Assembly: GCA_045133095.1 (NCBI GenBank)
Contig: JBGUTP010000004.1
Span: forward strand, 67,058-131,057
DNA: 64,000 bases
Direction: 5' to 3'
Source: Candidatus Enterousia sp.
Lineage (GTDB): Bacteria > Pseudomonadota > Alphaproteobacteria > Rs-D84
A program made the position numbers and the translations under genes. The notes under the pieces are model-generated. The model saw only the letters and a list, made by a program, of their open reading frames with translations, made no database searches and was not told the origin of the DNA. This document shows, piece by piece, positions 1 through 17,457 of this stretch (within the stretch, counting starts at the first letter, position 1; each line of letters starts with the position of its first letter).

Positions 1-10
1 CACAGAATTT

Positions 11-331
11 GTGCCAAATCAGGCGGGATTGGATGTGTTCCAAAGCACACAAGCGGTAAGACTGTTCGGGGAAGAATGGCCCGTCGCAATCCGCGCCGCA
101 TTATCAGAACGTCCCTATTTAATCGAAAAATGGAATACCATTCTGCAGACATACAACGCGTTTAGATTGTGGAATACCGCACAAGAAATTATATCACAGC
201 CAGAATCAGAACGTGCGCGCGCACAGGTTCAGGCAGACATGCCAGAATACGAAACCTATTTGCCAATGTTTGGCGATGCGGGAACAGAACTGTTGGGCAA
301 ATTGCGCACGTTCGTCAGTACCGCCAGTTAA
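11..331 (+). CDS. Hypothetical protein, probably 5'-truncated by the window edge
   Basis: Open frame with protein-like composition; its stop overlaps the stop of the convergent terminase-like gene. Confidence 0.6.
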   Translation: MPNQAGLDVFQSTQAVRLFGEEWPVAIRAALSERPYLIEKWNTILQTYNAFRLWNTAQEIISQPESERARAQVQADMPEYETYLPMFGDAGTELLGKLRTFVSTAS

Positions 332-927
332 TCACCGGTTTGATATATCGTGTCATGTGTGTGGGGTGTGCCAATGTAAATCATTGCGCCGTCTGGTGAC
401 AAAATAAAATCTAATTCACGCAGCCTTTCACGAAGATTTTCACGCTTTTGCGCAGTGTTTGATGTGTTTGGTACCTCTACGTCGTCGCAAATAATTAAAT
501 CTGCACGCATGCCGGTAATGTTGCCTTGGATACCCTGACAAATAACAGAAGGTTCGCGAATCCCAATTGGTCTGTTGATGGTTATGCGCCCCGCAGACCA
601 TTCTTTTCTGTTGGATGGAATCAAATCTGCGCACCAGGGATGGTTTTCCAGAATATGACGAATGTGGCTGACCATGCGGGCGGCAAGACCAGAATGTGCC
701 GACAATATCAATATGCGCGTCTGGGGACGTAAATACAATACGCATGCCGCAAATATCCCAACCACCGTGGATTTACCAGAATGACGAAACGCCATCAGTA
801 AACCACGATGGGGCGCATCACATAATATACTGAACAGAAAATCAATAATACGACGGTGATGCGCCGGAGTTTGCAAACCAAGTATTCTGTTCCATTCGTC
901 CAGAAATTTATAAAATTCCGTAATCAT
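328..927 (-). CDS. Phage terminase large subunit, N-terminal ATPase domain only (T7 gp19-like)
   Basis: Walker A AFRHSGKST, motif GNITGMRADLIICDDVE (Walker B), motif III YIGTPH; ends at 199 aa with no nuclease domain. Confidence 0.8.
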   Translation of the reverse strand: MITEFYKFLDEWNRILGLQTPAHHRRIIDFLFSILCDAPHRGLLMAFRHSGKSTVVGIFAACVLYLRPQTRILILSAHSGLAARMVSHIRHILENHPWCADLIPSNRKEWSAGRITINRPIGIREPSVICQGIQGNITGMRADLIICDDVEVPNTSNTAQKRENLRERLRELDFILSPDGAMIYIGTPHTHDTIYQTGD

Positions 928-1462
928 CGCTGTTTTCGTTCGGTGCCGGCTCAGAAATTAAACCATAGTCATTTATTAACTTTGGCAACGCATCTTCCAA
1001 AACTGACAACAGATTGCGATACAAACCTAAAACCGCACCACCTGATAATTTGTCGTTAATTACCTGATGAGTGTAATCAATAAGAGATTTTATGTCGTCA
1101 TGACGATTTGCCCATTCTGATAAATCAATATCGATGGAACGTAAGTCCTGAAAAGCAGAAAGCAAAAAATTGAAATCTGTATTCAGGTCTTCGGCGTCAA
1201 TGGTTTTGGTAGGCTGATAATCAATTGTACGCGACAGTGATATTTGCCTGAAGATATCCAGATGACTGTCTGTGGCGGGCGCAATATCGAAAACTATGTT
1301 TCCGCCGGAAAAATCATCATTGGGCATTACAGAATAGCCGTGCTGTGCTGGCGACAGCAACGCGCCATCAATTGCCACACGAACATCAGCAGTCTGAAAA
1401 AACGGAAAGGTAAATCCAAATTCACAGGTCGTGCCGTCGGCAATATAAGATATTTTATACAT
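908..1462 (-). CDS. Phage tail fibre-like protein (T7 gp17 N-terminal adaptor domain)
   Basis: N-terminus YIADGTTCEFGFTFPFFQTADVRVAIDG...IFRQ...IDAEDLNTDF resembles the T7 tail fibre N-domain; phage gene context. Confidence 0.7.
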   Translation of the reverse strand: MYKISYIADGTTCEFGFTFPFFQTADVRVAIDGALLSPAQHGYSVMPNDDFSGGNIVFDIAPATDSHLDIFRQISLSRTIDYQPTKTIDAEDLNTDFNFLLSAFQDLRSIDIDLSEWANRHDDIKSLIDYTHQVINDKLSGGAVLGLYRNLLSVLEDALPKLINDYGLISEPAPNENSDDYGIL

Positions 1463-1484
1463 TTTAAAAATCCCCCTGCCCCGG

Positions 1485-1832
1485 CTATCCTATGATGTCG
1501 TCAAATCTGGACAGCAATTTCGTTAAAAGATTCGTTTTAGTCGCGCGAACCGATTTTAATTTATCTGTGTTCTTTTTGCGTTTTTCATCATACGGCTGAG
1601 ACGCTTCGGAACGCAGACGACGTAAAACCGCGCCTTCGGTTACGCCCGATGCAGACATGCCAGATGCGCCATATTTTGCGCGCTGTGCTGATAATACCTT
1701 TTTGATTAAATTTGTCTTTTCCTGTTCGTCTGCAGCCATTTGCGCCAGAATTTCTTTGCGCTGAGATTGTGCTGACTTTTTAGAGTCTTTATAATCCAGA
1801 ACAGACGTAACGTCAGATACAAGTTGTGCCAT
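1485..1832 (-). CDS. Basic helical phage protein, possible internal virion/ejection protein
   Basis: ATG 1832 with AAAGGA RBS; QRAKYGASGM motif typical of podophage internal virion proteins; lies after tail tube B. Confidence 0.55.
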   Translation of the reverse strand: MAQLVSDVTSVLDYKDSKKSAQSQRKEILAQMAADEQEKTNLIKKVLSAQRAKYGASGMSASGVTEGAVLRRLRSEASQPYDEKRKKNTDKLKSVRATKTNLLTKLLSRFDDIIG

Positions 1833-1864
1833 ATTATTTTCCTTTGATTTAGTTGTTGTTATTT

Positions 1865-3580
1865 CTATACCGTGTACCAACCGTACAGACAAACCGATAA
1901 AACTGTGACCGGATGTGGGTCAGTGCCATGAATAACCCATGACGGTGCAATGCAATCCGACATGGAACCCAGTAAATTTATCGATACATCACCACTGTGA
2001 CCCGCAGAATCTGCCGAATACGATGCGTTGGGCAGAGTTATTCTGTGCTGATTTATAAACAATGATTTGGTATTCAGTACACGTGCGACAATTTTACGCA
2101 ACTTTAAACGACGGGCGTTATGACCTGATGCGCGTAGCGGTAAACCAGATGCAAAAAATGAAAAATCATAACGACCACAATCGCGAAGCGCAGATGAATC
2201 AAAATATTCAAGACTGAAGCCGTCTTCGCGTGAAACCGCAACATAGGTGCGACCATTGCACACGCAAACAGATGTAAATTTGCCCTGAGTACGGTATAAA
2301 GACCAGGCCGATATACCCAGTGCTGCGTTCTGATTTAATACCGCCATATCACCATCAGACAAAACAACATAAAGCCGACGAGAGTCGGGATTATATGATA
2401 AATCCTGGGGGTCTCGCAAAATATGCTTGGCAAAAACACACAAATCATTGGCATTATAATTTTCACCCAAATCATCCAGACTTAATTCACGGATGTCACA
2501 GCCGTTGCCCGATACAAATACAGTTGCGCCTTCGATTTTTTGGGGCGGCAAGTAGCGACCAGAATATGAACCAACGGTTGTGTGTTGCTTTATATCGACG
2601 ACGGATGGTGTTAGGGGTTTGCTGGATATTGCCCATTCGCCAACATTGGTTAATATTTGCAGGTTATCACTGCTGACGACGGTGCAAATTTGTTGCCGTT
2701 GTTGAGACAACAACGATAAAAATATCGCTTCGTCATCAAGCCCCGTGCCAGGATTAAAATTATTGTGCCGCCCCACACAGGACATCCATACGCCAGATGT
2801 CCAATCGCGCGAACCACCAAAAACAAGTCTGTCTTGGTGAAAAGTAATACTGCAGGGCCAACCGCGGCGTGTACTGAATGCCGCTTCGCGCCAATCTGAT
2901 ACCGCAGCATCCGGCAAGGTATAAGCACCATTGGTATAAGCAATCACTTCTGTGGGACTGATATATTCAGTCACAACCCATTGACGGTCAAGTAATTGCA
3001 AACGACCATCAACATTTTCAGGTGTCCAAAAGTCTTGGTCCGTGACAAATGTTGCATAATTGTTGCCGTTTGATGACGCCTTGACCGTTATCTTTATGCT
3101 GGTCGTGTCATCAAAACGAACGAATGGAATATTTGACGTCATGTCCGCGTCATTGCGCGAAAAGGAAAATTCAAATATGTCAAAGACACCTGAAGATTGC
3201 TGCAGTGTTTGTGGCGGATAATCAGGGTGAACAAATATCATTGTACCAAAACGCTGGGCGTACTGAAGGCGTGATAAGTCCGCATAAGACCAAGGTGTAA
3301 TTAAATCTTGATAATGGGTATCGTTAAAATAAATATCCATGTGAAAGTCTGTTAGGACCAGCACATATTCCTGGTCGTCCGATACAGAAAAAGATATCAA
3401 ACGACATGCGCCAGAAATATTATCCAGATGCACCAAGCCATCGCGACGCGATACGCCACCACCCGGCAACACGTCCATATTTTCCAGTCGTGACAGTCCA
3501 TTTATATTGTCACAAGCATAGAATTGAGGTGCAACAACGCCGTTGGCAAAAGAATTTTGTGTTTTTATAAATTCAGACAT
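1865..3580 (-). CDS. Tail tubular protein B / nozzle (T7 gp12-like)
   Basis: QNSFANG...LENMDVLPGGGVSRRDG start; RGWPCSITFHQDRLVFGG motif; follows tail tube A. Confidence 0.8.
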   Translation of the reverse strand: MSEFIKTQNSFANGVVAPQFYACDNINGLSRLENMDVLPGGGVSRRDGLVHLDNISGACRLISFSVSDDQEYVLVLTDFHMDIYFNDTHYQDLITPWSYADLSRLQYAQRFGTMIFVHPDYPPQTLQQSSGVFDIFEFSFSRNDADMTSNIPFVRFDDTTSIKITVKASSNGNNYATFVTDQDFWTPENVDGRLQLLDRQWVVTEYISPTEVIAYTNGAYTLPDAAVSDWREAAFSTRRGWPCSITFHQDRLVFGGSRDWTSGVWMSCVGRHNNFNPGTGLDDEAIFLSLLSQQRQQICTVVSSDNLQILTNVGEWAISSKPLTPSVVDIKQHTTVGSYSGRYLPPQKIEGATVFVSGNGCDIRELSLDDLGENYNANDLCVFAKHILRDPQDLSYNPDSRRLYVVLSDGDMAVLNQNAALGISAWSLYRTQGKFTSVCVCNGRTYVAVSREDGFSLEYFDSSALRDCGRYDFSFFASGLPLRASGHNARRLKLRKIVARVLNTKSLFINQHRITLPNASYSADSAGHSGDVSINLLGSMSDCIAPSWVIHGTDPHPVTVLSVCLYGWYTV

Positions 3581-3598
3581 CTTATCACCTTTGAACAA

Positions 3599-4117
3599 CT
3601 AAAACCGAGTGTCAATTAATGAAAATTTGCCAATTGCAGACGATGGGCAAATTGTACTGTCGATAAATTTGGATGTTTGCAGTTCTGATTCATATAACGC
3701 CGCTAACATGCGAAATACTGTCTGGTCCCCCAGTAACGGGATGCAAAATTCCATTGCTAAACGTGTCGCAACCAATGATGCAAAATACCCTGGGAACTTT
3801 TCAGGCAAAACACGCACAACCGCAGTGACAGATACAGAATCTGAATCAGAATAAATGCGATTGCCAACAATCGAACCAGAAACGCTGATAACACGCAGAA
3901 CATCCGACGGAATCAAAAAATTTCCATCCGTAGTTTTATTTAAATCTAAAATCTGGGTGGCAAAAGTCCAAGGATGAATCGACAACAACGATTCAACAAC
4001 TGTATCAAACAGAGTGCGTGATAACTTTGCCGCCGCAGAATCATCTGTTAATGACTGAATTGGTTCTTCGCCCAATTTTAACAAAGCCATAGAACATAAA
4101 TCTATTTTCGTAAGCAT
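3599..4117 (-). CDS. Tail tubular protein A / adaptor (T7 gp11-like)
   Basis: TKIDLCSMALLKLGEEPIQSL...LLSIHPWTFAT motif. Confidence 0.8.
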   Translation of the reverse strand: MLTKIDLCSMALLKLGEEPIQSLTDDSAAAKLSRTLFDTVVESLLSIHPWTFATQILDLNKTTDGNFLIPSDVLRVISVSGSIVGNRIYSDSDSVSVTAVVRVLPEKFPGYFASLVATRLAMEFCIPLLGDQTVFRMLAALYESELQTSKFIDSTICPSSAIGKFSLIDTRF

Positions 4118-4193
4118 TTTTGCCCCTTTACAAAAAACAATTGTTTAAACTTTGTTGGGTCAGACATGCCGACCCAACTTATAATAAGATGAC

Positions 4194-4424
4194 CTAGGCC
4201 AAGGCAACTGTTGTTACATTTAATTCTGTGATATTGATTTTCTTAATCGCGGTATTGTCAGATGCGTTGATAATTATAATATCGCCTATGTTCATCAAAC
4301 TTTTGACGTTGTTAAAATACCCATTTGCCGCAATCGTAGCCAATGTTTCAGTCGCACTGTAATGCCATAGGGTAAAGCCATTCGCATACGCAATAACAGA
4401 CAAATTTTTATTCTGAAAAGCCAT
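4194..4424 (-). CDS. Small conserved phage-cluster protein (possible capsid decoration protein)
   Basis: 76 aa MAFQNKNLSVIAYANGFTLWHY...GYFN; directly after the capsid gene, with RBS. Confidence 0.65.
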   Translation of the reverse strand: MAFQNKNLSVIAYANGFTLWHYSATETLATIAANGYFNNVKSLMNIGDIIIINASDNTAIKKINITELNVTTVALA

Positions 4425-4455
4425 TTATTCTTCCTTTGGTTTGTGGTTATTGATA

Positions 4456-5283
4456 TTAAGCCGCCGGTGTGTCAGAACACTTAACGCGAACAATGCCATC
4501 GCCATCAATCAAGACTGCGCCTTGGGACATGCTGTTGCTGATAAAGTGCGCCGCACGTTCGCCATGCCACGAGATATCACTTTTAACGTCTTGACCACTG
4601 GCGTGACCAATGCTGGATGCGTGATAAATAAAGCAATCACGATTTTCATCAGACACTGGCAAACCATTGTGCAATACCCATGTAATACCCAACCATTTGC
4701 GGGCTTCGAAACCATTGACCAATGGCGACGATTGACCGACATAATCCGCCGACACAAATTCATCCATGGACAGCAGTTCGTTCCACTGGCGCACACCGAC
4801 AACTGCAAAGCGACGACCGTCGTCTGGAACATCGTTGGTGTTTAAAATTTCAACTGCCGACAAAATCAAATCTTTGGTCAGACCTGTGGAATAATCACCG
4901 ACACTTGATGTGGCGTCATTCATCGCAGAAATAATCAATTCATCTGTTTTTCGCCCCAGTGCGTATGCGCCCGCAGATGCAACAACCAAACGTTCGTCCA
5001 CGTTGGTCTTTAATTCATCAAGACTGTCAACCCAATCGCCGGCATAATAGTCCTGTAACAGACATTCAACAGGTTCATGATTCAAATTCATAACAGGCAC
5101 AATGCCATGACGTGATTTAGTGCTGGCGGTGCCGCGACCAACCTTTTGGAAAGTGGTAGATGCACCCACAACACCAGATTTACTGCGAACTGTCGAACGC
5201 AGTTTTGTGCCCATTTGCTGATAAGCCAAATGAACATCGGCTTCGAATTGTTTCACGAAGATATTATCTATGGAAACAGACAT
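4456..5283 (-). CDS. Phage major capsid protein (podovirus/T7-like)
   Basis: FVKQFEADVHLAYQQMGTKLR, AYALGRKTDELII, WLGITWVLH; ATG 5283 with AAGGA RBS. Confidence 0.85.
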   Translation of the reverse strand: MSVSIDNIFVKQFEADVHLAYQQMGTKLRSTVRSKSGVVGASTTFQKVGRGTASTKSRHGIVPVMNLNHEPVECLLQDYYAGDWVDSLDELKTNVDERLVVASAGAYALGRKTDELIISAMNDATSSVGDYSTGLTKDLILSAVEILNTNDVPDDGRRFAVVGVRQWNELLSMDEFVSADYVGQSSPLVNGFEARKWLGITWVLHNGLPVSDENRDCFIYHASSIGHASGQDVKSDISWHGERAAHFISNSMSQGAVLIDGDGIVRVKCSDTPAA

Positions 5284-5476
5284 ATAAAAATCCTTTGGTT
5301 TATTAAAAATAGTTCGACACAAACAGGTGTCGATGTTAAATTCTTTTGTCTTTAGGTTATGCAGTAGCGATTGCGCCATAAAACAAAAATTTCACAGGGT
5401 CCGCATAGTACGGATTATCCAAAAAAATATCAGTCATACTGTGGCCACAAAAATCTGACTGATACTTTTTAAAATA

Positions 5477-5500
5477 AAAACCCGTGTGAAACACACGGGT
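5477..5500 (-). terminator. Rho-independent terminator of the histone-like gene
   Basis: ACCCGTGTG/CACACGGGT stem followed by a T-run on the minus strand. Confidence 0.7.
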
Positions 5501-5525
5501 AATAAAAGATAAAATAAATTATTTA

Positions 5526-5945
5526 TTATTTTTTCTTAGCGCATGCTTTTTTTGCACAAGGTTTCTTGGCACATGCTTTTTTTGCAACTGGTTTCGCAGC
5601 AACTTTTTTAACCGCTACTTTTTTTGCAGCAGGTTTCGCAGCAACTTTTTTAACCGCTACTTTTTTTGCAGCAGGTTTCGCAGCAACTCTTTTAACCGCT
5701 ACTTTTTTCGCAGCTGGTTTTGCAGCAACTTTTTTAACTGCTACTTTTTTTGCCGCTGGTTTCGCAGCAGGTTTTTTAACCGCTACTTTTTTTGCCGCTG
5801 GTTTCGCAGCAACTTTTTTAACCGCTACTTTTTTTGCAGCAGGTTTTGCAGCAGGTTTTTTAACCGCTGCTTTTTTTGCAACCGGTTTCGCAGCAGGTTT
5901 TGCAACGACGGCTTTTTTTGCAGGCTTTTTAAACAAGAATCCCAT
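5526..5945 (-). CDS. Histone H1-like Lys/Ala-rich DNA-binding protein (Hc2/AlgP-like)
   Basis: About seven 14-aa repeats AKPAAKKVAVKKVA; C-terminal KKACAKKPCAKKACAKKK; AGGAG RBS before ATG 5945. Confidence 0.8.
   Translation of the reverse strand: MGFLFKKPAKKAVVAKPAAKPVAKKAAVKKPAAKPAAKKVAVKKVAAKPAAKKVAVKKPAAKPAAKKVAVKKVAAKPAAKKVAVKRVAAKPAAKKVAVKKVAAKPAAKKVAVKKVAAKPVAKKACAKKPCAKKACAKKK
5570..5900. repeat. 42-bp coding tandem repeat inside the histone-like gene
   Basis: Repeated GGTTTCGCAGCAACTTTTTTAACCGCTACTTTTTTTGC units. Confidence 0.85.
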
Positions 5946-6052
5946 TCTTCTCTCCTTTTCGTGTTTTGGATAGAACAAATCCGTTTTGTTCTTACTTTGT
6001 ATTTTATCTTAAATACAAAACTTAGTAAAGAAGAAAGTGATTATTTTCTGTG

Positions 6053-6712
6053 TTATGAATATAATTTTTTAAATCCGTTTTCTATTTTACGTATGTATTC
6101 AACGTCACCATCACGCCAATATTTTGGATTGCGCATCATTTCACGCAACTGGGCATCTGTTAAATTTTTTGTTTCATCATTATCTGTTTGAACAGATGGT
6201 TCCATTGATTGCATCATCTTGTAAACGCTTTGAATTCCCTGGGGTGTAGCGCATAATGCATCAAACGCTTCGCGTGGCAAAAAGCGTTCGCCAAAAGAAT
6301 TTATTGCACGTAATGCATCGTGCATTTTTTTATCATCACCAAAAAAACTTTTTAATTCACTGATTGCTTTTGTTTCTTGTGACACAGAAAATAAATCTGA
6401 AATTAATGGTGATAAAAATTCATTCGCAATGTCATATATTTTTTCAACCTGCGTGGAAGTCAGGCCAATATCAAAAAATTTTTGACGCAAATTCTCATCA
6501 TCATACATTTCGTTTTTTGGATATTCTGATGCACTGGTCGGAACACCTATTGCACGATTAAATTTTTCGCGCGCCGCATTATCTGATTCTTCATTTGGTA
6601 CCGACACCATGGAACCCATTTTCTTTTCCAGTTCTTTGTAAGATTTTATTAATGCATCTGTATTTAATGTTCCGTCTGTGTTCAAAAATTTTTCAGGAAT
6701 TTTTGTTTCCAT
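6053..6712 (-). CDS. Capsid assembly scaffolding protein
   Basis: IPEKF...ALIKSYKELEKKMG and C-terminal MMRNPKYWRDGD...IENGFKKLY, typical of podophage scaffolds; upstream of capsid. Confidence 0.7.
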   Translation of the reverse strand: METKIPEKFLNTDGTLNTDALIKSYKELEKKMGSMVSVPNEESDNAAREKFNRAIGVPTSASEYPKNEMYDDENLRQKFFDIGLTSTQVEKIYDIANEFLSPLISDLFSVSQETKAISELKSFFGDDKKMHDALRAINSFGERFLPREAFDALCATPQGIQSVYKMMQSMEPSVQTDNDETKNLTDAQLREMMRNPKYWRDGDVEYIRKIENGFKKLYS

Positions 6713-6902
6713 CTTTTTGTCCTTTGGTTTCGTTAGAGCGACGAAGAAAATATATCCCCGCCAATGTAAAAATTGATTGCAACATTGTAAAGATGTCCGT
6801 GTCACCAACCAGATATGACGCCAGCGCAGATATTATTCCAACGCCCGAGATAATATATGTTCGATGACCAGACAAATAGCCACCTTTGAAAAAGTGTGTC
6901 AT
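6693..6902 (-). CDS. Small two-TM membrane protein, holin-like
   Basis: 69 aa, LSGHRTYI followed by two hydrophobic segments and a basic tail; next to a cell-wall hydrolase. Confidence 0.5.
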   Translation of the reverse strand: MTHFFKGGYLSGHRTYIISGVGIISALASYLVGDTDIFTMLQSIFTLAGIYFLRRSNETKGQKDGNKNS

Positions 6903-6917
6903 GTTATCCTTTGATTC

Positions 6918-7388
6918 TTATAAATAAAACAACATACCCGATATGTCGGCAATGTATCCGCGTGCAACAGCCCATTGTGGCAAACAGTCACAGTGATGAA
7001 AGCATGTCGCACCAAAACAACTGTCGGGCAACACACCAGATAACATACGCTGGGCAACACGGACACACATTTGAAAACTGGGACTTGATGCAGAGGCACC
7101 AAGACTTTTATGACGAGGACTGTCTGATTGCAGACAAGAAAAAATTCTGTAATCAGCGATTACAGAATCTATTGAGCGTCCAGTTTTTTCAGAAATATTT
7201 TTTATCATACTGGTAAGTGCTTCGACCCCGACCAACGTTGCGCCATCTGTTTCGGCATAAACAACGCGTGCAATTTTATGCGCCAATGTTGACATCGGTG
7301 CATCGGTTTGAATGATTTTCAAATGCATGTTCGCCCCCATAAAAAAATACCCCATGCGAAAAAGCATGAGGCAATAAAAAAACCACAA
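6918..7388 (-). CDS. Cell wall hydrolase (SleB/Hydrolase_2-like); start probably nearer 7328
   Basis: IARVVYAET, IFSCL, GATCFHH, PQWA motifs. Confidence 0.7.
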   Translation of the reverse strand: MWFFYCLMLFRMGYFFMGANMHLKIIQTDAPMSTLAHKIARVVYAETDGATLVGVEALTSMIKNISEKTGRSIDSVIADYRIFSCLQSDSPRHKSLGASASSPSFQMCVRVAQRMLSGVLPDSCFGATCFHHCDCLPQWAVARGYIADISGMLFYL

Positions 7389-7481
7389 CGCTGTTGTGGA
7401 TATAATCTGTGCTGTTTATGGTTTGAATTATATCACATTCAGAGCCTAAAGTCAAGAAAAAAATTTGACAAATCAGAATTC

Positions 7482-8162
7482 TTATAGTGAAATCTCGTCA
7501 CCATAAACCAATAGGTAACGTGTGTCACGACGTAAAATCAATGCACCATTCTCGTTTATGCCTATTAATTGTGCAGGTTCACCTTGGTATTTGACCATGC
7601 AGTTTAAACATGCGGCAAGTTCGGTCCAACGCGCACGAACCGCACGAAAATCAGCACGACGCCATTTGTCCAGATTTCGCATTAAACGATTCAATAACTC
7701 TGTCATAGGTATTTCAGAATAATTATCAAGTTTTGTCGTCTGATATCGGTCAACCGTTGGATTTGATAAAACGTTTATACCAATACCAACAATTACAAAA
7801 CGACCAGAATACTCAATCAGTATGCCCGCAACCTTTTTGCCTTGAACCAGAATATCGTTCGGCCACTTAATCGTCGGATGAATGCCAAAGGACGCAATAG
7901 TTTCCGCAACCGCAACCGCCACAGAATACGACAGGCGCGCATCACGTTCGGGTGCATTGTATATAAAACTGGCATACAGATTTCCGTGGTGCGACACCCA
8001 TGTGCGACGATAACGACCGCGACCCGCAGACTGTGCCGCGGCAACAATCGCCGTGGCATCAGATGCACGACCAGACGCAACCAAATCATGCGCATAATCT
8101 TGGGTGCTGGGGATTTTGTCCAAAGATATTAATTTATAGTTTGCCAAGTCTATACACCCCAT
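7482..8162 (-). CDS. birA: Biotin--[acetyl-CoA carboxylase] ligase
   Basis: STQD, QSAGRGR, KWPNDIL, KVAGILIE, GIGIN motifs. Confidence 0.95.
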   Translation of the reverse strand: MGCIDLANYKLISLDKIPSTQDYAHDLVASGRASDATAIVAAAQSAGRGRYRRTWVSHHGNLYASFIYNAPERDARLSYSVAVAVAETIASFGIHPTIKWPNDILVQGKKVAGILIEYSGRFVIVGIGINVLSNPTVDRYQTTKLDNYSEIPMTELLNRLMRNLDKWRRADFRAVRARWTELAACLNCMVKYQGEPAQLIGINENGALILRRDTRYLLVYGDEISL

Positions 8163-8553
8163 TCGAATTTAAAATAAAATCATGACCAAATGTACGCCGC
8201 AATTGATAAATTGCATTATCTACCGTGTGGGTGGCAACATCAGGCGCATACCCCAGCGCAGTTTTTAGTTGCGGTACACTCATCCCGCCGGAACGATATA
8301 ACAAAACAACTATTTGCGCCTGAAGACGCGGCAACGATATTGGTGATGGTAAAATTTTCTTAAGGACGCCGCCATAGTCAGAAGCATTTAAAAGAAGCGT
8401 TTTTAATTCCAGCGGCGACACCGGGGTCGGGATGTCTATGTCATCCAGGTTCAGGTCGGTTGGCGTTGGCGCGTCAAGAACAAATGCGCCTAAGTCCGAC
8501 AAAATACGGCGCCAGGTACAATCAGATGAATAAATACGAAAACCTGTCAACAT
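8134..8553 (-). CDS. Winged-helix (OmpR C-terminal type) DNA-binding protein lacking a canonical receiver domain
   Basis: LGY...THTVDNAIYQLRR...NGVYRL. Confidence 0.7.
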   Translation of the reverse strand: MLTGFRIYSSDCTWRRILSDLGAFVLDAPTPTDLNLDDIDIPTPVSPLELKTLLLNASDYGGVLKKILPSPISLPRLQAQIVVLLYRSGGMSVPQLKTALGYAPDVATHTVDNAIYQLRRTFGHDFILNSNGVYRLGKL

Positions 8554-8651
8554 GTATAAACGATAATAAATATATGCACTGTTGTCCAATAAAAAACCAC
8601 AACAGAATTACAACTATTGTGATTTTTTGGGGTGTCGAAAACAATACCGTG

Positions 8652-8897
8652 TTATTCACGCACCATATCTGGCGGGTCAATAAACTTGGTAAAATCCTGA
8701 ATTTTGGCACCTGTTGATGCAAGTATTTTTGAAATACTGTTGGTCGAAGGCCATCTGGGTTGACCTTCTTTGGACCAACGCTTTGATTTATTAAATGTGG
8801 TCGGGTCTAAACCGCTGCACTTTGCCAGTCCGGAACAAGACATGCCATGCTCTGTTGCAAAGCGTTCGATTGCGCGCCACACATCGTCATGTGTCAT
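8652..8897 (-). CDS. Alphaproteobacterial phage-repressor-like HTH regulator without the S24 peptidase domain
   Basis: THDDVWRAI...SGLAKCSGLDPTTFNKSKR...PRWPST family signature. Confidence 0.8.
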   Translation of the reverse strand: MTHDDVWRAIERFATEHGMSCSGLAKCSGLDPTTFNKSKRWSKEGQPRWPSTNSISKILASTGAKIQDFTKFIDPPDMVRE

Positions 8898-9091
8898 TTT
8901 TTTCTCCCTCTTGTTTAACTAGAATCTTATCCTGATGTTCTAGTGTACGTTGATTTTATTCCAGAAATTCCGGGAAAACAATAAGTCCTATTTCCTAGGT
9001 ATGCCTGCATATTTTAAACAAATAAACACACACAAAAAATTTTTTTTGACAAATCACTTGACAAATCGTTTTTTGTGTATTATATTTCGAA

Positions 9092-9283
9092 TCGTCAAAG
9101 GGAACAAACCCAATGATCAGATGCGAAAGCACCTGTGGGGACCAGAGGTTCAGACTCCCTCCTACATTCTCTCTCCTCTGGACTCTGGACCCCAGAATTA
9201 AGTTTAGAGTGTCCAATTTCTTTTTCTCCTTTCCTTCCTTTCGGGACACTCGGAAATACCGCCGGAAACGGCGGTGTTTTTTT
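9092..9283 (+). ncRNA. Candidate small RNA with CU-rich (anti-Shine-Dalgarno) hairpin loops
   Basis: TTGACA...TATATT promoter at 9058; stems 9136-9148/9183-9194 and 9207-9214/9244-9251; terminator ACCGCCG-GAAA-CGGCGGT-T7. Confidence 0.6.
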
Positions 9284-9296
9284 ATCCGTAAATAAA

Positions 9297-11489
9297 CTAC
9301 ATGAAATTAATTGGATTTACGTCTATCTTGACGCGGATGTTCGCAGGCTGCTTTACGCGCGACAGCCATGCAGACACAATCGGCTGCAGGGACGCCGTGG
9401 GACCACCCGACACCAAAAAGCGCATACGGTACCAATTGCGTATCTGATAAACCTGGGCGGTGATTGGACCCATTATTTTCCCACCATTCAATATCGGCGC
9501 CGATGCGGCAAGGTCCGAACAATACCTGTGTAATACAGATTCCTTTTCGCCTTCGACAATAATCGCAATCAATTGACCATACGGGGGCATTTGCGCCAAA
9601 CGACGCCCCATCATGTCAGATGCCATAAAACTGTCGCGGTCACCGTTACATATGGCGGTTAATACAGGATGGTCTGGTTGATACGTTTGTAATAAAACAC
9701 GACCGGGGTGCGAACCACGCCCCGCACGACCTGCAACCTGAAACAACTGTTGAAAGGTGTGTTCGGCGGCACGAAAATCAGTGCCGAACAACCCCATATC
9801 GCTGTCAACAACCCCGACAAGGGTTAAATTAGGGAAATGATGACCCTTTGCCAAAATCTGGGTACCGATTATGACGTCTATTTCGCCCTGCTCCATCTTA
9901 TCAACAAGTCGTTCTAAGACCTGACGAGAAGTTATAATGTCACTTGATACCAAGGCGGTGCGTGCATTTGGAAAACGCGCCAAAACTTCTTGTTGAACTT
10001 TTTCAAGACCAATGCCACGCATTGATACCTGGGTGTTGCAATCCGGGCAATCGCGCATTAATGGCGCAGTGCGACCGCATATATGACACAATAACTTACC
10101 AAGCCGCTTGTGATACGTCATCCCGACACTGCAATCGGGGCACATCGCCGTCCATCCACATTTTTTGCATTGAATAATAGGCGCAAAACCACGGCGATTA
10201 ATAAACAGCATCACCTGACGACCCGCCGACAAAGTTTCCGTTATTGCTTGGCACATGGGGTCGGATAAAAAACCAGTCTGTTCCGCATCATCTGCCATAT
10301 AGGTGGTTGGTCTGTGTTCACGCAAATCAATTGTTGTAATTTCTGGCAACTGCGCACCACCAAAACGAGATGTCAGACGCAATTGACGATATTTGCCAAC
10401 ATTCACATTTTCCAGCGTTTCTGCCGCAGGGGTGGCAGATGCCAAAACAACGGGGAAACCAGCAATCTTGGCACGCAAAATCGCCATGTCGCGCGCATGG
10501 TAATTACCCATATCTTCTTGCTTGTACGAAGTATCGTGCTCTTCGTCTATGACAACCAAAGATAAATTCTGCCACGGTAAAAATAAGGCACTGCGCGTAC
10601 CGACCACCATTCGAATTTGCCCAGATAACACACCACGCCAAATTTCACGGCGACGTGCGGCGGTTAAATTACTGTGCCAGACCACAGGTGCGGCACCAAA
10701 ACGCGATGCAAAGCGATGCATAAACTGTGCCGTCAGTGCAATTTCTGGCATCATCAACAGAACAGAACCACCCCGACTGTATGCGTGCCACGCAGAATCA
10801 AAATAAACCTGGGTTTTACCACTGCCGGTGATGCCATCCAACAGATGCACCGAAAAACCACCTTGGTCTATTGCAGCACCGATTATATCTGCGGCGGATT
10901 GCTGCTGAGCATTCAAAACGATATCACTGGAATCCTGATAGTCACAGTTAAAACTGTCTGTGTCGCGTGGACGCGTTGCCGCCGGCACAAGAGTACCGTT
11001 CTTTATCATTGTACGAACAACAGCAGAACTGACGCGCGCAATGTTTTGAATGTCAGATAAAGTCATTGGGTCGTTATCATTTGATGCAAACGCATCCATA
11101 ACCGATTGACGATTAGGAGTCATGCGCGCAGTAGTCGAAAAATCAAAATTATATAACTGTTCCAATCTTGGTGGCGAAAAAGCGTCCGGAATATTTACAA
11201 TAAGACGTAAAACCATTCCCATTGGAATCAAGGTCCACTGGGACATTTTTTGTATCCACTGCATATCAGTTACCGCCAGGCGCGCAGGATATACAGACAA
11301 AACATCTTTTATCTTATTTTCAGGCAAACCACTGTCACCAATACCCCATACTATGCCAACGCATGGGCGGTTCATCACCGTAACAGATACGAACGACCCC
11401 AGGTCCGCCGGCGCCGACAGACGATAGTCATATCCAGAATTTGGAACATTAGATACTAAAACCTTTACAATGGTACCTGAATCAAACAT
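9297..11489 (-). CDS. priA: Primosomal protein N'
   Basis: GITGSGKT, DEEH, four CxxC pairs, GTQILAKGHHFP, QVAGRAGR. Confidence 0.97.
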   Translation of the reverse strand: MFDSGTIVKVLVSNVPNSGYDYRLSAPADLGSFVSVTVMNRPCVGIVWGIGDSGLPENKIKDVLSVYPARLAVTDMQWIQKMSQWTLIPMGMVLRLIVNIPDAFSPPRLEQLYNFDFSTTARMTPNRQSVMDAFASNDNDPMTLSDIQNIARVSSAVVRTMIKNGTLVPAATRPRDTDSFNCDYQDSSDIVLNAQQQSAADIIGAAIDQGGFSVHLLDGITGSGKTQVYFDSAWHAYSRGGSVLLMMPEIALTAQFMHRFASRFGAAPVVWHSNLTAARRREIWRGVLSGQIRMVVGTRSALFLPWQNLSLVVIDEEHDTSYKQEDMGNYHARDMAILRAKIAGFPVVLASATPAAETLENVNVGKYRQLRLTSRFGGAQLPEITTIDLREHRPTTYMADDAEQTGFLSDPMCQAITETLSAGRQVMLFINRRGFAPIIQCKKCGWTAMCPDCSVGMTYHKRLGKLLCHICGRTAPLMRDCPDCNTQVSMRGIGLEKVQQEVLARFPNARTALVSSDIITSRQVLERLVDKMEQGEIDVIIGTQILAKGHHFPNLTLVGVVDSDMGLFGTDFRAAEHTFQQLFQVAGRAGRGSHPGRVLLQTYQPDHPVLTAICNGDRDSFMASDMMGRRLAQMPPYGQLIAIIVEGEKESVLHRYCSDLAASAPILNGGKIMGPITAQVYQIRNWYRMRFLVSGGPTASLQPIVSAWLSRVKQPANIRVKIDVNPINFM

Positions 11490-16886: not shown

Positions 16887-16911
16887 TTCGAATTTATTGT
16901 GGGAGCTTGAA

Positions 16912-17457
16912 TTATTTTTCTAATATTTTTTCCAATATATATTCGTGATGCCATTCGCCGTCAATAAATGCAGTGTCATGCAAAATACCGACAATTTCAT
17001 AACCTTGCTTTAACAGATTGCCAAGCGAACGCGTATTTTTATGTCGGATACTAGATTCCAGTTTGTGTACATTATTTTCAATCGCCCACTTTTCTATTAT
17101 TTGCTTGAACTTAGTCCCCAAACCATTCGAAGTGTATTTTTCTAATATGGTTGTTCCTGTGGTGGCCACGCGTCCCGAATATGGATGCCCAACTTGCTTT
17201 TTATTTATGCTGGCGGTGCCAATCAAAGTGTTGCCATCCCATGCACCCAAGAACAAATTGTTTGGATTTTCATAAATCTGGATAGATTTTTCGCGGTCTT
17301 TTTTCGGTTGACCAGCATACTGACATGTCCATTTTGCCCCAGGACCACGAGTGAATTTTTCAAGGTACTTCATCATATCTTCATAATCCTTACCACGAAT
17401 ACGGCGAATAGTAACAACTTTACCGTTTTTTAATTTGAATTTGATGGCACGATTCAT
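16912..17457 (-). CDS. GNAT family N-acetyltransferase; cassette 2
   Basis: ILEKYTSNGLGT acetyl-CoA motif, NTRSLGNLLKQGY, RimJ/L-like C-terminus. Confidence 0.85.
   Translation of the reverse strand: MNRAIKFKLKNGKVVTIRRIRGKDYEDMMKYLEKFTRGPGAKWTCQYAGQPKKDREKSIQIYENPNNLFLGAWDGNTLIGTASINKKQVGHPYSGRVATTGTTILEKYTSNGLGTKFKQIIEKWAIENNVHKLESSIRHKNTRSLGNLLKQGYEIVGILHDTAFIDGEWHHEYILEKILEK

Follow-up and report, generated by a model that had tools for sequence, protein, structure and literature searches.

The question raised by this locus is whether a string of phage structural genes in a bacterial chromosome still belongs to a virus or has been taken over by its host. The window, the whole stretch of 64,000 nucleotides analyzed here, comes from Candidatus Enterousia (order Rs-D84, Alphaproteobacteria; G000:C4:67058-131057 of a 1.08-Mb, 97%-complete assembly) and carries at positions 328-8897 a minus-strand cluster of T7-type particle genes. 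The first-pass annotation had described this cluster as a domesticated, miniaturized T7-like podophage module, a candidate for a new type of gene transfer agent (GTA) or a nanocompartment. Its core idea, a domesticated T7-like module that is possibly a new GTA type, is strongly supported by the distribution, synteny, purifying selection, and co-divergence reported below. We consider it very probable that the host keeps these genes as functional particle genes and fairly probable that the particles package DNA; whether gene transfer is the selected function stands at even chances. Taken together, the explanation that we moderately favor is a GTA-like particle system that is kept by the host and packages DNA. 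Its origin would be a T7-like podophage without an RNA polymerase of its own, of the HTVC010P/Hodr type, which makes it a GTA-like "viriform" and not a prophage.

Products were identified by profile searches (Pfam, PHROG, and NCBIfam models), and start codons are given as the likely true starts. The predicted set consists of scaffold, capsid, portal, tail tubular proteins A and B (tube A and tube B), a protein in the position of T7 gp14, a fiber adaptor, a terminase in two pieces (the N-terminal half TerN and the nuclease half TerC), a hydrolase, and a membrane-anchored coiled-coil protein. These phage-derived genes lie in the chromosome and are inherited vertically; no self-replication, integration, or excision genes were found with them, and the essential dnaB sits inside the string.

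Conservation and selection of the particle genes

Throughout Candidatus Enterousia and the order Rs-D84, the set stays intact and keeps its place under purifying selection, and the essential host genes dnaB and birA are interspersed with it. A capsid match is present in 38 of 41 related Rs-D84 genomes at 64 to 91% identity, including 29 of the 30 high-quality relatives, all members of the genus (24/24), and 14 of 17 genomes from five other Rs-D84 families. Gene order, with dnaB between the terminase halves, is identical in the seven genus loci fetched (7/7), and the same order recurs in further Enterousia-type loci that reach that far. The birA gene keeps its position in these seven loci as well, although the match in one of them (L027) comes in two pieces, and a birA homolog adjoins the portal gene in a genome of another Rs-D84 family (G025). 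Between families the gene order is scrambled in different ways without the loss of any open reading frame (ORF).

Intactness was scored in 88 Enterousia-type loci, made up of this genome, the seven genus loci, and 80 loci from named metagenome-assembled genomes (the best 80 of 575 relatives), with each gene counted where the contig reaches it. Full-length copies were found for capsid in 87/88 loci, tube A in 88/88, tube B in 86/88, TerN in 85/85, TerC in 80/80, portal in 75/78, scaffold in 71/73, and the 135-amino-acid (aa) ORF in the gp14 position in 86/86. The shortfalls are matches cut at the end of a contig or locus, except for one capsid with an in-frame stop; the two partial tube B matches come from short loci of 3.6 and 2.9 kb.

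Selection was measured as the median pairwise NG86 ratio of nonsynonymous to synonymous substitution rates (dN/dS). The values are approximate because dS is near saturation (medians of 1.0 to 1.7), which counts against leaning on them closely, and they run from 0.079 for the capsid and 0.087 for the portal through TerN (0.104), a 78-aa protein (0.119), a 76-aa protein (0.131), fiber adaptor (0.169), tube A (0.179), the 135-aa ORF (0.187), TerC (0.194), tube B (0.211), a Bbp19-like protein (0.219), and scaffold (0.220) to the hydrolase (0.283). The neighboring host genes gave 0.084 for dnaB, 0.100 for a gene with two helix-turn-helix (HTH) domains, 0.110 for priA, and 0.170 for birA. Despite the saturated dS, these sequence comparisons exclude neutral decay over this depth. 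Presence, synteny, and dN/dS had all been named as checks by the first-pass annotation, and each came out on the side of domestication, with the capsid in most Rs-D84 relatives, an order fixed in the genus, and ratios of 0.08 to 0.28.

The tree comparison that it had also suggested, made here between module genes and host taxonomy, points the same way. In a tree of the concatenated capsid, tube A, tube B, and TerN, Rs-D84 forms one side of a branch with a Shimodaira-Hasegawa-like approximate likelihood ratio (SH-aLRT) support of 99, and all four families with at least two members (f1, f2, f3, and f92) are monophyletic. The module tree follows host taxonomy; a reservation is that it comes from a quick rather than a careful search, and that many of its rows deviate in composition.

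The two-piece terminase and the compact ancestral module

TerN (199 aa; window 328-927, minus strand) matches positions 2-190 of 500 of the NCBIfam model NF033889 termin_lrg_T7 (8.6e-69) as well as phrog_38 (2.5e-43), and carries Walker A, Walker B, and GTPH motifs. TerC (294 aa; G000:C4:63184-64068, minus strand) matches positions 331-500 of the same model. It lies left of the window next to the portal gene (407 aa, minus strand; PF12236, 1.2e-78), the two together occupying G000:C4:61936-64068. This is where the nuclease and portal genes, which the first-pass annotation proposed to seek elsewhere in the genome, were located; its statement that there is no portal thus holds inside the window and fails for the locus as a whole. 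The break falls directly after a conserved IGTPHT..(D/N).IY stretch. Motifs are invariant on both sides of it: Walker A (FR.SGKS), Walker B (CDD.E), and GTPH in 24 TerN sequences, and W-D-P, E.NG, and DD..D in TerC. The summed length of TerN and TerC equals that of the single-ORF terminase in the capsid's own family (487 to 497 aa).

Two terminase ORFs with the same break occur in Enterousia and in all seven of the other Rs-D84 loci examined (L018-L021 and L023-L025; in L023 the TerN half alone was found), and outside Rs-D84 the terminase is a single ORF of 487 to 504 aa in 7/7 loci checked. Since every Rs-D84 locus examined is broken at the same site and the ORF is single outside the order, the split is most simply read as an ancestral trait of Rs-D84. 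The halves have since been separated differently, by a dnaB block in Enterousia, by several kilobases and the portal gene in family f3, and in a scrambled order in another genome (G029).

Structure prediction supports the reassembly of the two halves. The TerN-TerC complex reached an interaction score (ipSAE) of 0.86, compared with 0.01 for the best control, with a contact agreement of at least 94% and a predicted local distance difference test score (pLDDT) of at least 74 for the partners; of 157 solved complexes 116 attain this mark, as do 2 of 215 mismatched pairs. In the predicted complex, the N-terminal strand of TerC pairs with the TerN strand that precedes Walker A. The prediction may, on the other side, simply echo intact terminases of solved structure that the model has learned. 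That no small terminase was recognized counts against the favored explanation. A comparable case is the ribonucleotide reductase of Aeromonas phage Aeh1, the gene of which is split in two. There, too, an enzyme gene is cut at a conserved motif and both halves are kept, presumably reassembling, whereas the present break shows no sign of a homing endonuclease, a whole bacterial order shares the fixed split, and the halves lie up to several kilobases apart.

The module descends from a compact form of about 14 kb that is present in many Alphaproteobacteria. In an even draw of 401 genomes of this class, a capsid match was found in 96 at an E value of ≤0.001 and in 69 at ≤5e-68 (41 to 86% identity), nearly always as one match per genome, with genome sizes of 0.9 to 6.6 Mb among the carriers. 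The recurrent compact order in 20 class-level loci is portal, Bbp19, scaffold, capsid, small protein, tube A, tube B, fiber, terminase, and hydrolase, and in 18 of them the TerN match directly neighbors the TerC match. Locus GC content spans 38 to 73% and tracks the host, and seven of the 20 loci, ranging from 38 to 70% GC, have pyrD beside their hydrolase end. A Pfam scan of the 92 ORFs of four compact loci identified a divergently transcribed repressor of about 210 aa with HTH and Peptidase_S24 domains, two conserved small genes (A2 and A3) ahead of the portal gene, a gp14-like protein, fibers of 363 to 675 aa, and a Hydrolase_2 cell-wall hydrolase; one locus adds a lysozyme and a "GTA_holin_3TM" protein. 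Housekeeping genes directly abut these loci, and no integrase or replication families were found among the 92 ORFs.

Measured against this family, the miniaturization on which the first-pass annotation had built much of its case proves to be mostly an artifact of comparison with T7 itself, and we rejected it as the main evidence of domestication because the sizes match those of the capsid's own family (capsid 272 to 281 aa, tube A 189 aa, and terminase 487 to 497 aa). A real shortening remains in three proteins: the portal (407 aa versus 488 to 595 aa in the family, counting single-ORF loci only), tube B (571 versus 621 to 639 aa), and the in-cluster fiber (184 versus 363 to 675 aa).

The phages closest to the module are HTVC010P/Hodr-type pelagiphages, which share its capsid family. 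Pelagibacter phage EXVC031P is the nearest isolate (44% capsid identity), and a phage-like 35-kb IMG/VR contig (L158) reaches 62%. The contig also shares the order portal, scaffold, capsid, small protein, tube A, and tube B; it differs in an Sf6-type small terminase and in proteins of 748 and 1036 aa behind tube B, in the gp15/gp16 position, which are absent from the chromosomal modules. The late region of phage T7 (genes 8, 9, 10, 11, 12, 14, 17, and 19) is matched by the portal, scaffold, tubular proteins, fiber N-terminal domain, and terminase, and its gene order is kept in the compact module. The present locus differs from T7 in having another capsid Pfam family, no gp15/16 homologs, and a chromosomal and immobile site. 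It is not a T7-like single-block gene set: gp15/16 are missing, host genes interrupt the string, and the terminase is split. A search for the single-subunit RNA polymerase family PF00940 gave no match in this genome; the same search matched none of 14 control genomes, so that it had no positive control.

Gene content and proposed control of the operon

All of the minus-strand ORFs listed by the first-pass annotation are present, without frameshifts in this genome, and translation from methionine reproduces its lengths for capsid and tube B. Its remark that there is no compositional break also holds, since GC content over window positions 1-9000 (0.36 to 0.46) does not depart from the contig average of 0.422. 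Profile searches of the ORFs up to about 15 kb to the left and right found no integrase, polymerase, or replication families, as it had noted for the first two; no tRNA lies in the 20 kb around the locus (L213), and an Rfam search of window positions 1-9400 returned just two chance-level microRNA matches, both under the gathering score.

Read in the direction of transcription on the minus strand, the structural operon begins with a leader (7348-7455) that has a promoter and two tandem terminators by sequence pattern and that would act in its control. The cell-wall hydrolase-like protein (6918-7388; 136 aa from the methionine at 7328; phrog_938 endolysin, 4e-08) is a homolog of the PF07486 Hydrolase_2 proteins with which the compact module of other Alphaproteobacteria closes and is probably a lysis enzyme. 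The scaffolding protein is T7 gp9-like (6053-6808; 219 aa from Met33); its PF05396 score (9.8e-06) is just under the Pfam cutoff, and homologs in relatives reach 2e-13 to 9e-15. The major capsid protein (4456-5379; 275 aa from Met33 at window position 5283) belongs to PF19821 (2.5e-71; phrog_3437, 2.7e-71), which is a different Pfam family from the T7-type capsid that had been assumed. It is followed by a conserved 76-aa protein (4194-4424; phrog_18004, 4.2e-14) found in the same position in most class-level loci, by tube A, the adaptor (3599-4117; 172 aa; phrog_394, 5.6e-31; PF17212, 4.3e-04), and by tube B, the nozzle (1865-3598; 571 aa from Met; phrog_376, 2.4e-81).

The small protein in the gp14 position (1485-1892; 135-aa ORF, 115 aa from Met) is without a family match. 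Its earlier label as internal-virion-like comes down to one weak link, 33% identity over 85 aa (E = 0.027) with the correspondingly placed protein of a compact locus (L040), which itself matches PF24072 T7_gp14 at 7e-04; the window protein is possibly an inner-virion or ejection protein. The fiber adaptor (908-1462; 184 aa; PF03906, 0.0016; phrog_30017, 1.1e-09; phrog_1640, 1.4e-08) corresponds by these profiles to the N-terminal tail-binding domain of a T7 gp17-like fiber with a short C-terminal part. TerN then closes the cluster. No holin-like ORF, which the first-pass annotation had listed, can be identified between 328 and 8897.

The scaffold and capsid genes are separated by an inserted host-type gene (5526-5978, minus strand) for a Lys/Ala-rich, histone-H1-like protein (PF07382 HC2, 3.9e-11; NF038053, 1.8e-08, below its cutoff) with a terminator-like hairpin of its own at 5500-5480 (9-bp stem). 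The protein (139 to 150 aa) is built almost entirely of AAKPAAKKVAVKK-type repeats. The same slot holds other inserts elsewhere, a PilZ gene on the opposite strand in one locus (L044) and a GGDEF-EAL gene in another (L175).

Upstream of the leader, still on the minus strand, are the biotin-protein ligase gene birA (7482-8162; 226 aa; TIGR00121, 4.6e-42), a host housekeeping gene inside the string; a 151-aa protein (8134-8589) without a family match, conserved in the genus (dN/dS 0.302), and possibly a DNA-binding regulator from the look of its C terminus only; and an HTH-only protein of the Cro/CI type (8652-8897; 81 aa; PF13443, 0.0012). Immediately left of the window a 212-aa gene, the double-HTH gene, and dnaB lie on the opposite (plus) strand and separate TerN from TerC and portal; this dnaB holds the sole DnaB_C match in the genome. 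Beyond dnaB the minus strand continues with the Bbp19-like protein, the 78-aa protein with an N-terminal hydrophobic helix and what reads as a coiled-coil-like tail, and a 163-aa protein with an Mtd_N tail-fiber domain, after which ordinary glycosyltransferase genes follow. A complete prophage continuing to the left, which would have spoken against domestication, is thus not what lies there; the leftward genes complete the structural set and have the essential dnaB among them. The start regions of TerC (L001:11127-12011, minus strand) and dnaB (L001:11995-13560, plus strand) overlap back to back (G000:C4:63184-65617), so each promoter must sit within the coding sequence of the other gene. A second Mtd_N-type gene, 38% identical in its N-terminal part to the one at the cluster end, is located at G000:C4:36786-37097.

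The HTH-only protein (dN/dS 0.054) is 45 to 61% identical to the first ~70 residues of the ~210-aa HTH and Peptidase_S24 proteins, which identifies it, by homology, as a remnant of the module's CI/LexA-type repressor that has lost the S24 self-cleavage domain. No S24 domain was found anywhere in the 97%-complete genome, and hence no LexA; RecA is present. Two HTH-only paralogs, 55% and 73% identical to the 81-aa protein, form with it a small family of repressor heads (G000:C4:164140-164358 and G000:C7:42238-42462); one adjoins a NUDIX gene and an autotransporter, and the other lies between a LysR regulator and efflux genes.

An alternative form of control is suggested by the leader between birA and the hydrolase gene. 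It holds a near-consensus promoter (TTGACT-17-TATAAT, preceded by TG) and, about 25 nucleotides downstream, two tandem hairpins, each with seven T residues, directly before the hydrolase start codon. Among the first 45 of 64 distinct Enterousia leaders, the promoter pattern recurs in 33 and at least one hairpin with a T-run in 44. By eye, another leader (L024) has a promoter-like sequence and one terminator, and in the compact locus L040 a terminator with a 16-bp stem stands between A2-A3 and the portal gene. A2 and A3 are absent from the Enterousia cluster and form a pair at C4:212.9-213.7 kb, at a distance of more than 100 kb. A2 was found in 37 and A3 in 34 of the 41 relatives, always adjacent to each other and far from the capsid.

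Directly upstream of the relocated A2-A3 pair are VirB9/CagX-like and VirB10/TrbI-like genes (L210:645-4676; G000:C4:208644-212675), and a Stealth-family gene lies downstream. Family f2 lacks A3 (0/4), and in its genus g10 the capsid, A2, and A3 are all missing together; a TerN stop also occurs in this family (G030), and f2 may be losing the system.

The idea of antitermination was recorded before the fold searches were run. Among 48,161 chains, the A2 model (pLDDT 79.7) came closest to two antiterminator complexes, that of Q21 (Z 5.5; root mean square deviation [rmsd] 3.9; 90 aligned) and that of AlpA (Z 5.3; rmsd 4.1; 85 aligned), with numerous sigma region 4 domains next in rank. The A3 model (pLDDT 81.0) resembles permuted papain-like hydrolases, namely TseH (Z 6.9; rmsd 3.5; 104 aligned), YiiX (Z 5.7; rmsd 4.0; 109 aligned), and the cysteine peptidase PDB 3kw0 (Z 5.5; rmsd 4.3; 110 aligned), and one His and one Cys are invariant in its alignment. 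We hypothesize from these models a terminator-gated operon opened by a Q-like factor. Several points argue against it. All of these fold matches have Z values below 8, at which chance arrangements are frequent; neither model had a Foldseek match in the PDB at an E value of ≤0.001; the promoter pattern was not found upstream of the hydrolase gene in three loci of other Rs-D84 families (L018, L019, and L023); and the leader could instead be a small-RNA gene. Sequence-profile searches of the PDB with A2 and A3 found nothing below an E value of 0.15.

The arrangement has parallels among known regulators. BrrG of BaGTA is described as resembling Q21 and reading through a terminator ahead of bgtA-K (10.1101/2024.11.20.624540), and GafYZ of Caulobacter as an antitermination-type control of a GTA (PMC11150451). 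Like these systems and the Q control of lambda and P21, the present locus has a promoter and then terminators ahead of particle genes, and an A2 model that is nearest to Q21 and AlpA; the likeness to BaGTA, a terminator-gated operon with a Q-like factor, is drawn from description alone. It differs from the Q/AlpA systems in that A2 is without shown sequence similarity, the Z values of 5.3 to 5.5 are weak, and the regulator in Rs-D84 sits more than 100 kb from its presumed target.

Expression data come from the contigs of two bovine-gut metatranscriptomes, in which uncovered stretches are uninformative. One 2.8-kb RNA contig covers the dnaB, double-HTH, and 212-aa genes and ends at the TerN junction; others cover 359 nucleotides of TerN, the histone-like gene, birA and the 151-aa ORF, and priA, and a 285-nucleotide contig with a depth of 43 covers the HTH remnant (L213 16910-17194; gene 16910-17155). 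RNA on the histone-like gene was found in both metatranscriptomes, where its low-complexity repeat may draw RNA of other organisms. These contigs hint that the covered parts are transcribed; the capsid, tube, portal, and scaffold genes are among the uncovered, uninformative stretches.

Possible particle function, rival explanations, and known systems

If the favored explanation holds, a constitutive promoter upstream of the hydrolase and scaffold genes would be blocked by the two leader terminators until A2, encoded beside the papain-like A3, lets RNA polymerase read through. Scaffold, capsid, and portal would then assemble a procapsid; TerN and TerC would reassemble into an ATPase-nuclease motor that fills the heads with host DNA; the short tail and variable fiber or Mtd-like tips would be added; and the hydrolase would release the particles. 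Delivery would reach the periplasm only, because no gp15/gp16-type ejection proteins are encoded, and the rest of the uptake would fall to ComEC, DprA, and RecA, which are retained, as for the GTA of Rhodobacter capsulatus (RcGTA). The joint proposal is of a second, independently domesticated, podovirus-derived GTA lineage in the Alphaproteobacteria, of an age sufficient for families spanning 38 to 70% GC to have its pyrD site in common, with dispersed genes, a two-subunit motor since the Rs-D84 ancestor, a Q-like antiterminator replacing the SOS switch in Enterousia, and host-DNA particles that use ComEC and DprA of the recipient because the ejection proteins were discarded. We offer this full chain tentatively and rate it slightly short of even odds.

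The strongest competitor, unlikely in our estimate yet deserving weight, is that the particle genes are kept for a use other than transfer, such as killing, controlled lysis release, delivery to a partner, or an empty shell. Much of what bears on it concerns attachment and delivery, and the same observations weigh against our explanation. The cluster has no fiber adaptor in 26 of 84 loci; of the nine loci that extend far enough, just three have an Mtd_N-type protein behind the cluster, and a search of five genus genomes found such proteins in three, scattered as one to three copies per genome; and no gp15/gp16-type proteins were found in the chromosomal modules. Other points weigh on our explanation without bearing on this rival. 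ComEC and DprA, which are present in this genome together with RecA, were also matched in 10 and 11 of 14 control genomes, so that their retention, common in bacteria, is weak evidence. Further such points are damaged copies in other lineages (a portal in two ORFs in L044, a TerN in-frame stop in G030 at L025:10978-11556 in family f2, near the N terminus of the homolog, and a truncated portal with the host GGDEF-EAL gene inserted in L175), and the fact that all of the genomes are metagenome assembled and the system is known from its genes alone. A use in partner delivery would also suit the proposal that Rs-D84 bacteria are partner dependent (PMC12306168).

A non-transfer use hardly explains, on the other hand, why the portal and both terminase halves, with invariant motifs, are constrained like dnaB if no DNA is packaged, and no encapsulin-type cargo-loading feature was seen. 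A fiber homolog, sometimes relocated, is present in all five genomes checked; in two with fiberless clusters (G003 and G004) it is a longer frame elsewhere of 302 to 326 aa whose N-terminal domain is 38 to 40% identical. The receptor-binding parts are variable and mobile within the genome, as expected for parts that track cell surfaces, but are not uniformly present. The Mtd_N protein as a universal receptor binder was rejected on its occurrence after the cluster.

A decaying, defective prophage remnant that survives by chance or by linkage to essential neighbors is very improbable. It would account for a module cut by host genes, a broken terminase gene, and the few copies with stops or truncations in other lineages, but the core genes are full length in 75 to 88 independent species-level loci with dN/dS of 0.08 to 0.28 at near-saturated dS, neutral drift over this depth would have wrecked the frames, and the reordering between families cost no ORF. 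The genes are, moreover, kept in genomes of about 1 Mb described as stripped of most biosynthesis (PMC12306168).

More improbable still is an active temperate phage or satellite that infects repeatedly and prefers one integration site. In its favor, many stretches of this kind are entered in IMG/VR as viral contigs (580 relatives with the same capsid), a prophage-calling study reports an "HTVC010P-like prophage" in Sinorhizobium (PMC10460002), and L158 is a phage-like relative. Against it, no integrase, replication genes, att-like tRNA site, or small terminase was found; the sole dnaB and birA lie inside the string; the module tree mirrors host taxonomy; locus GC content tracks the host from 38 to 73%; and most genomes have a single capsid match. 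The locus does not have the makeup of an integrated prophage. The nanocompartment of the first-pass annotation was rejected, and the locus does not fit one of the encapsulin type, since the portal gene, the tail genes, and the two terminase halves, their motifs invariant, are conserved along with the capsid.

Among the closest known systems is RcGTA (Rhodobacter capsulatus and Caulobacter; Rhodogtaviriformidae). The two are alike in holding only phage-derived head, tail, packaging, and lysis genes, in vertical inheritance within the Alphaproteobacteria, in purifying selection, in partly dispersed genes, and in hosts that have ComEC and DprA, on which RcGTA uptake depends. The RcGTA capsid is of the HK97 type (PF05065) and its tail is long and siphovirus-like, whereas the present locus has a PF19821 capsid, a gp9-like scaffold, and T7-type tubular proteins A and B. 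The RcGTA hallmark GTA_TIM (g15) was not found in this 97%-complete genome, although the positive control was found in Caulobacter; the locus is not a member of the RcGTA family. Two PF05065 HK97-type capsid genes do occur in the assembly (G000:C31:7288-8076 and G000:C22:4540-5328; 6e-37 and 5e-36) on contigs of 12.6 and 6.7 kb, which probably come from ordinary (pro)phages and were binned along with the genome.

A podovirus-like counterpart has been described in Faecalibacterium prausnitzii, where a gut GTA-like element in two loci (FpGTA) was judged podovirus-like and, in the January 2026 paper, called the first podovirus-like GTA (PMC12946183). It belongs to another phylum, and we liken it to the present locus by description and not by sequence. 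Rs-D84 itself is characterized in a 2025 paper as a group of gut bacteria with genomes of about 1 Mb or less that have lost most biosynthesis and are maybe partner dependent, and the text of that paper makes no mention of phage, capsid, prophage, virus, or gene transfer agent (PMC12306168). In the full-text literature, supplements excluded, we found no description of a T7- or HTVC010P-like domesticated module in Alphaproteobacteria or in Rs-D84. What appears new in the Rs-D84 form is the order-wide split of the terminase, the dispersal among essential genes, the loss of the SOS-type switch, and the terminator-gated leader.

Genomes of about 1 Mb devote more than 1% of their DNA to a complete set of virus-particle genes, and keeping them as constrained as dnaB in reduced genomes implies a strong benefit. 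The system gives an entry point for studying DNA exchange or repair in such partner-dependent gut bacteria. If the particles do transfer DNA, the Alphaproteobacteria would hold a second, podovirus-derived GTA lineage beside RcGTA, and the timing and steps of its domestication would be readable from compact module to split motor, dispersed genes, and loss of the SOS switch. The order-wide split of the terminase amounts to a natural dissection of a viral packaging motor.

The module also bears on virus databases, which hold hundreds of these chromosomal stretches as "viral contigs" and so inflate phage counts for the gut and the environment. Most of the best 80 IMG/VR relatives are 4 to 19 kb long, and many of those with this capsid (L130-L209, of which L158 and L175 were annotated) are probably fragments of the chromosomal module. 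A 5-kb GenBank entry from human feces, MT838907.1, "Bacteriophage sp.," with a capsid 64% identical to the one in the window, may likewise be a piece of the module rather than a virus.

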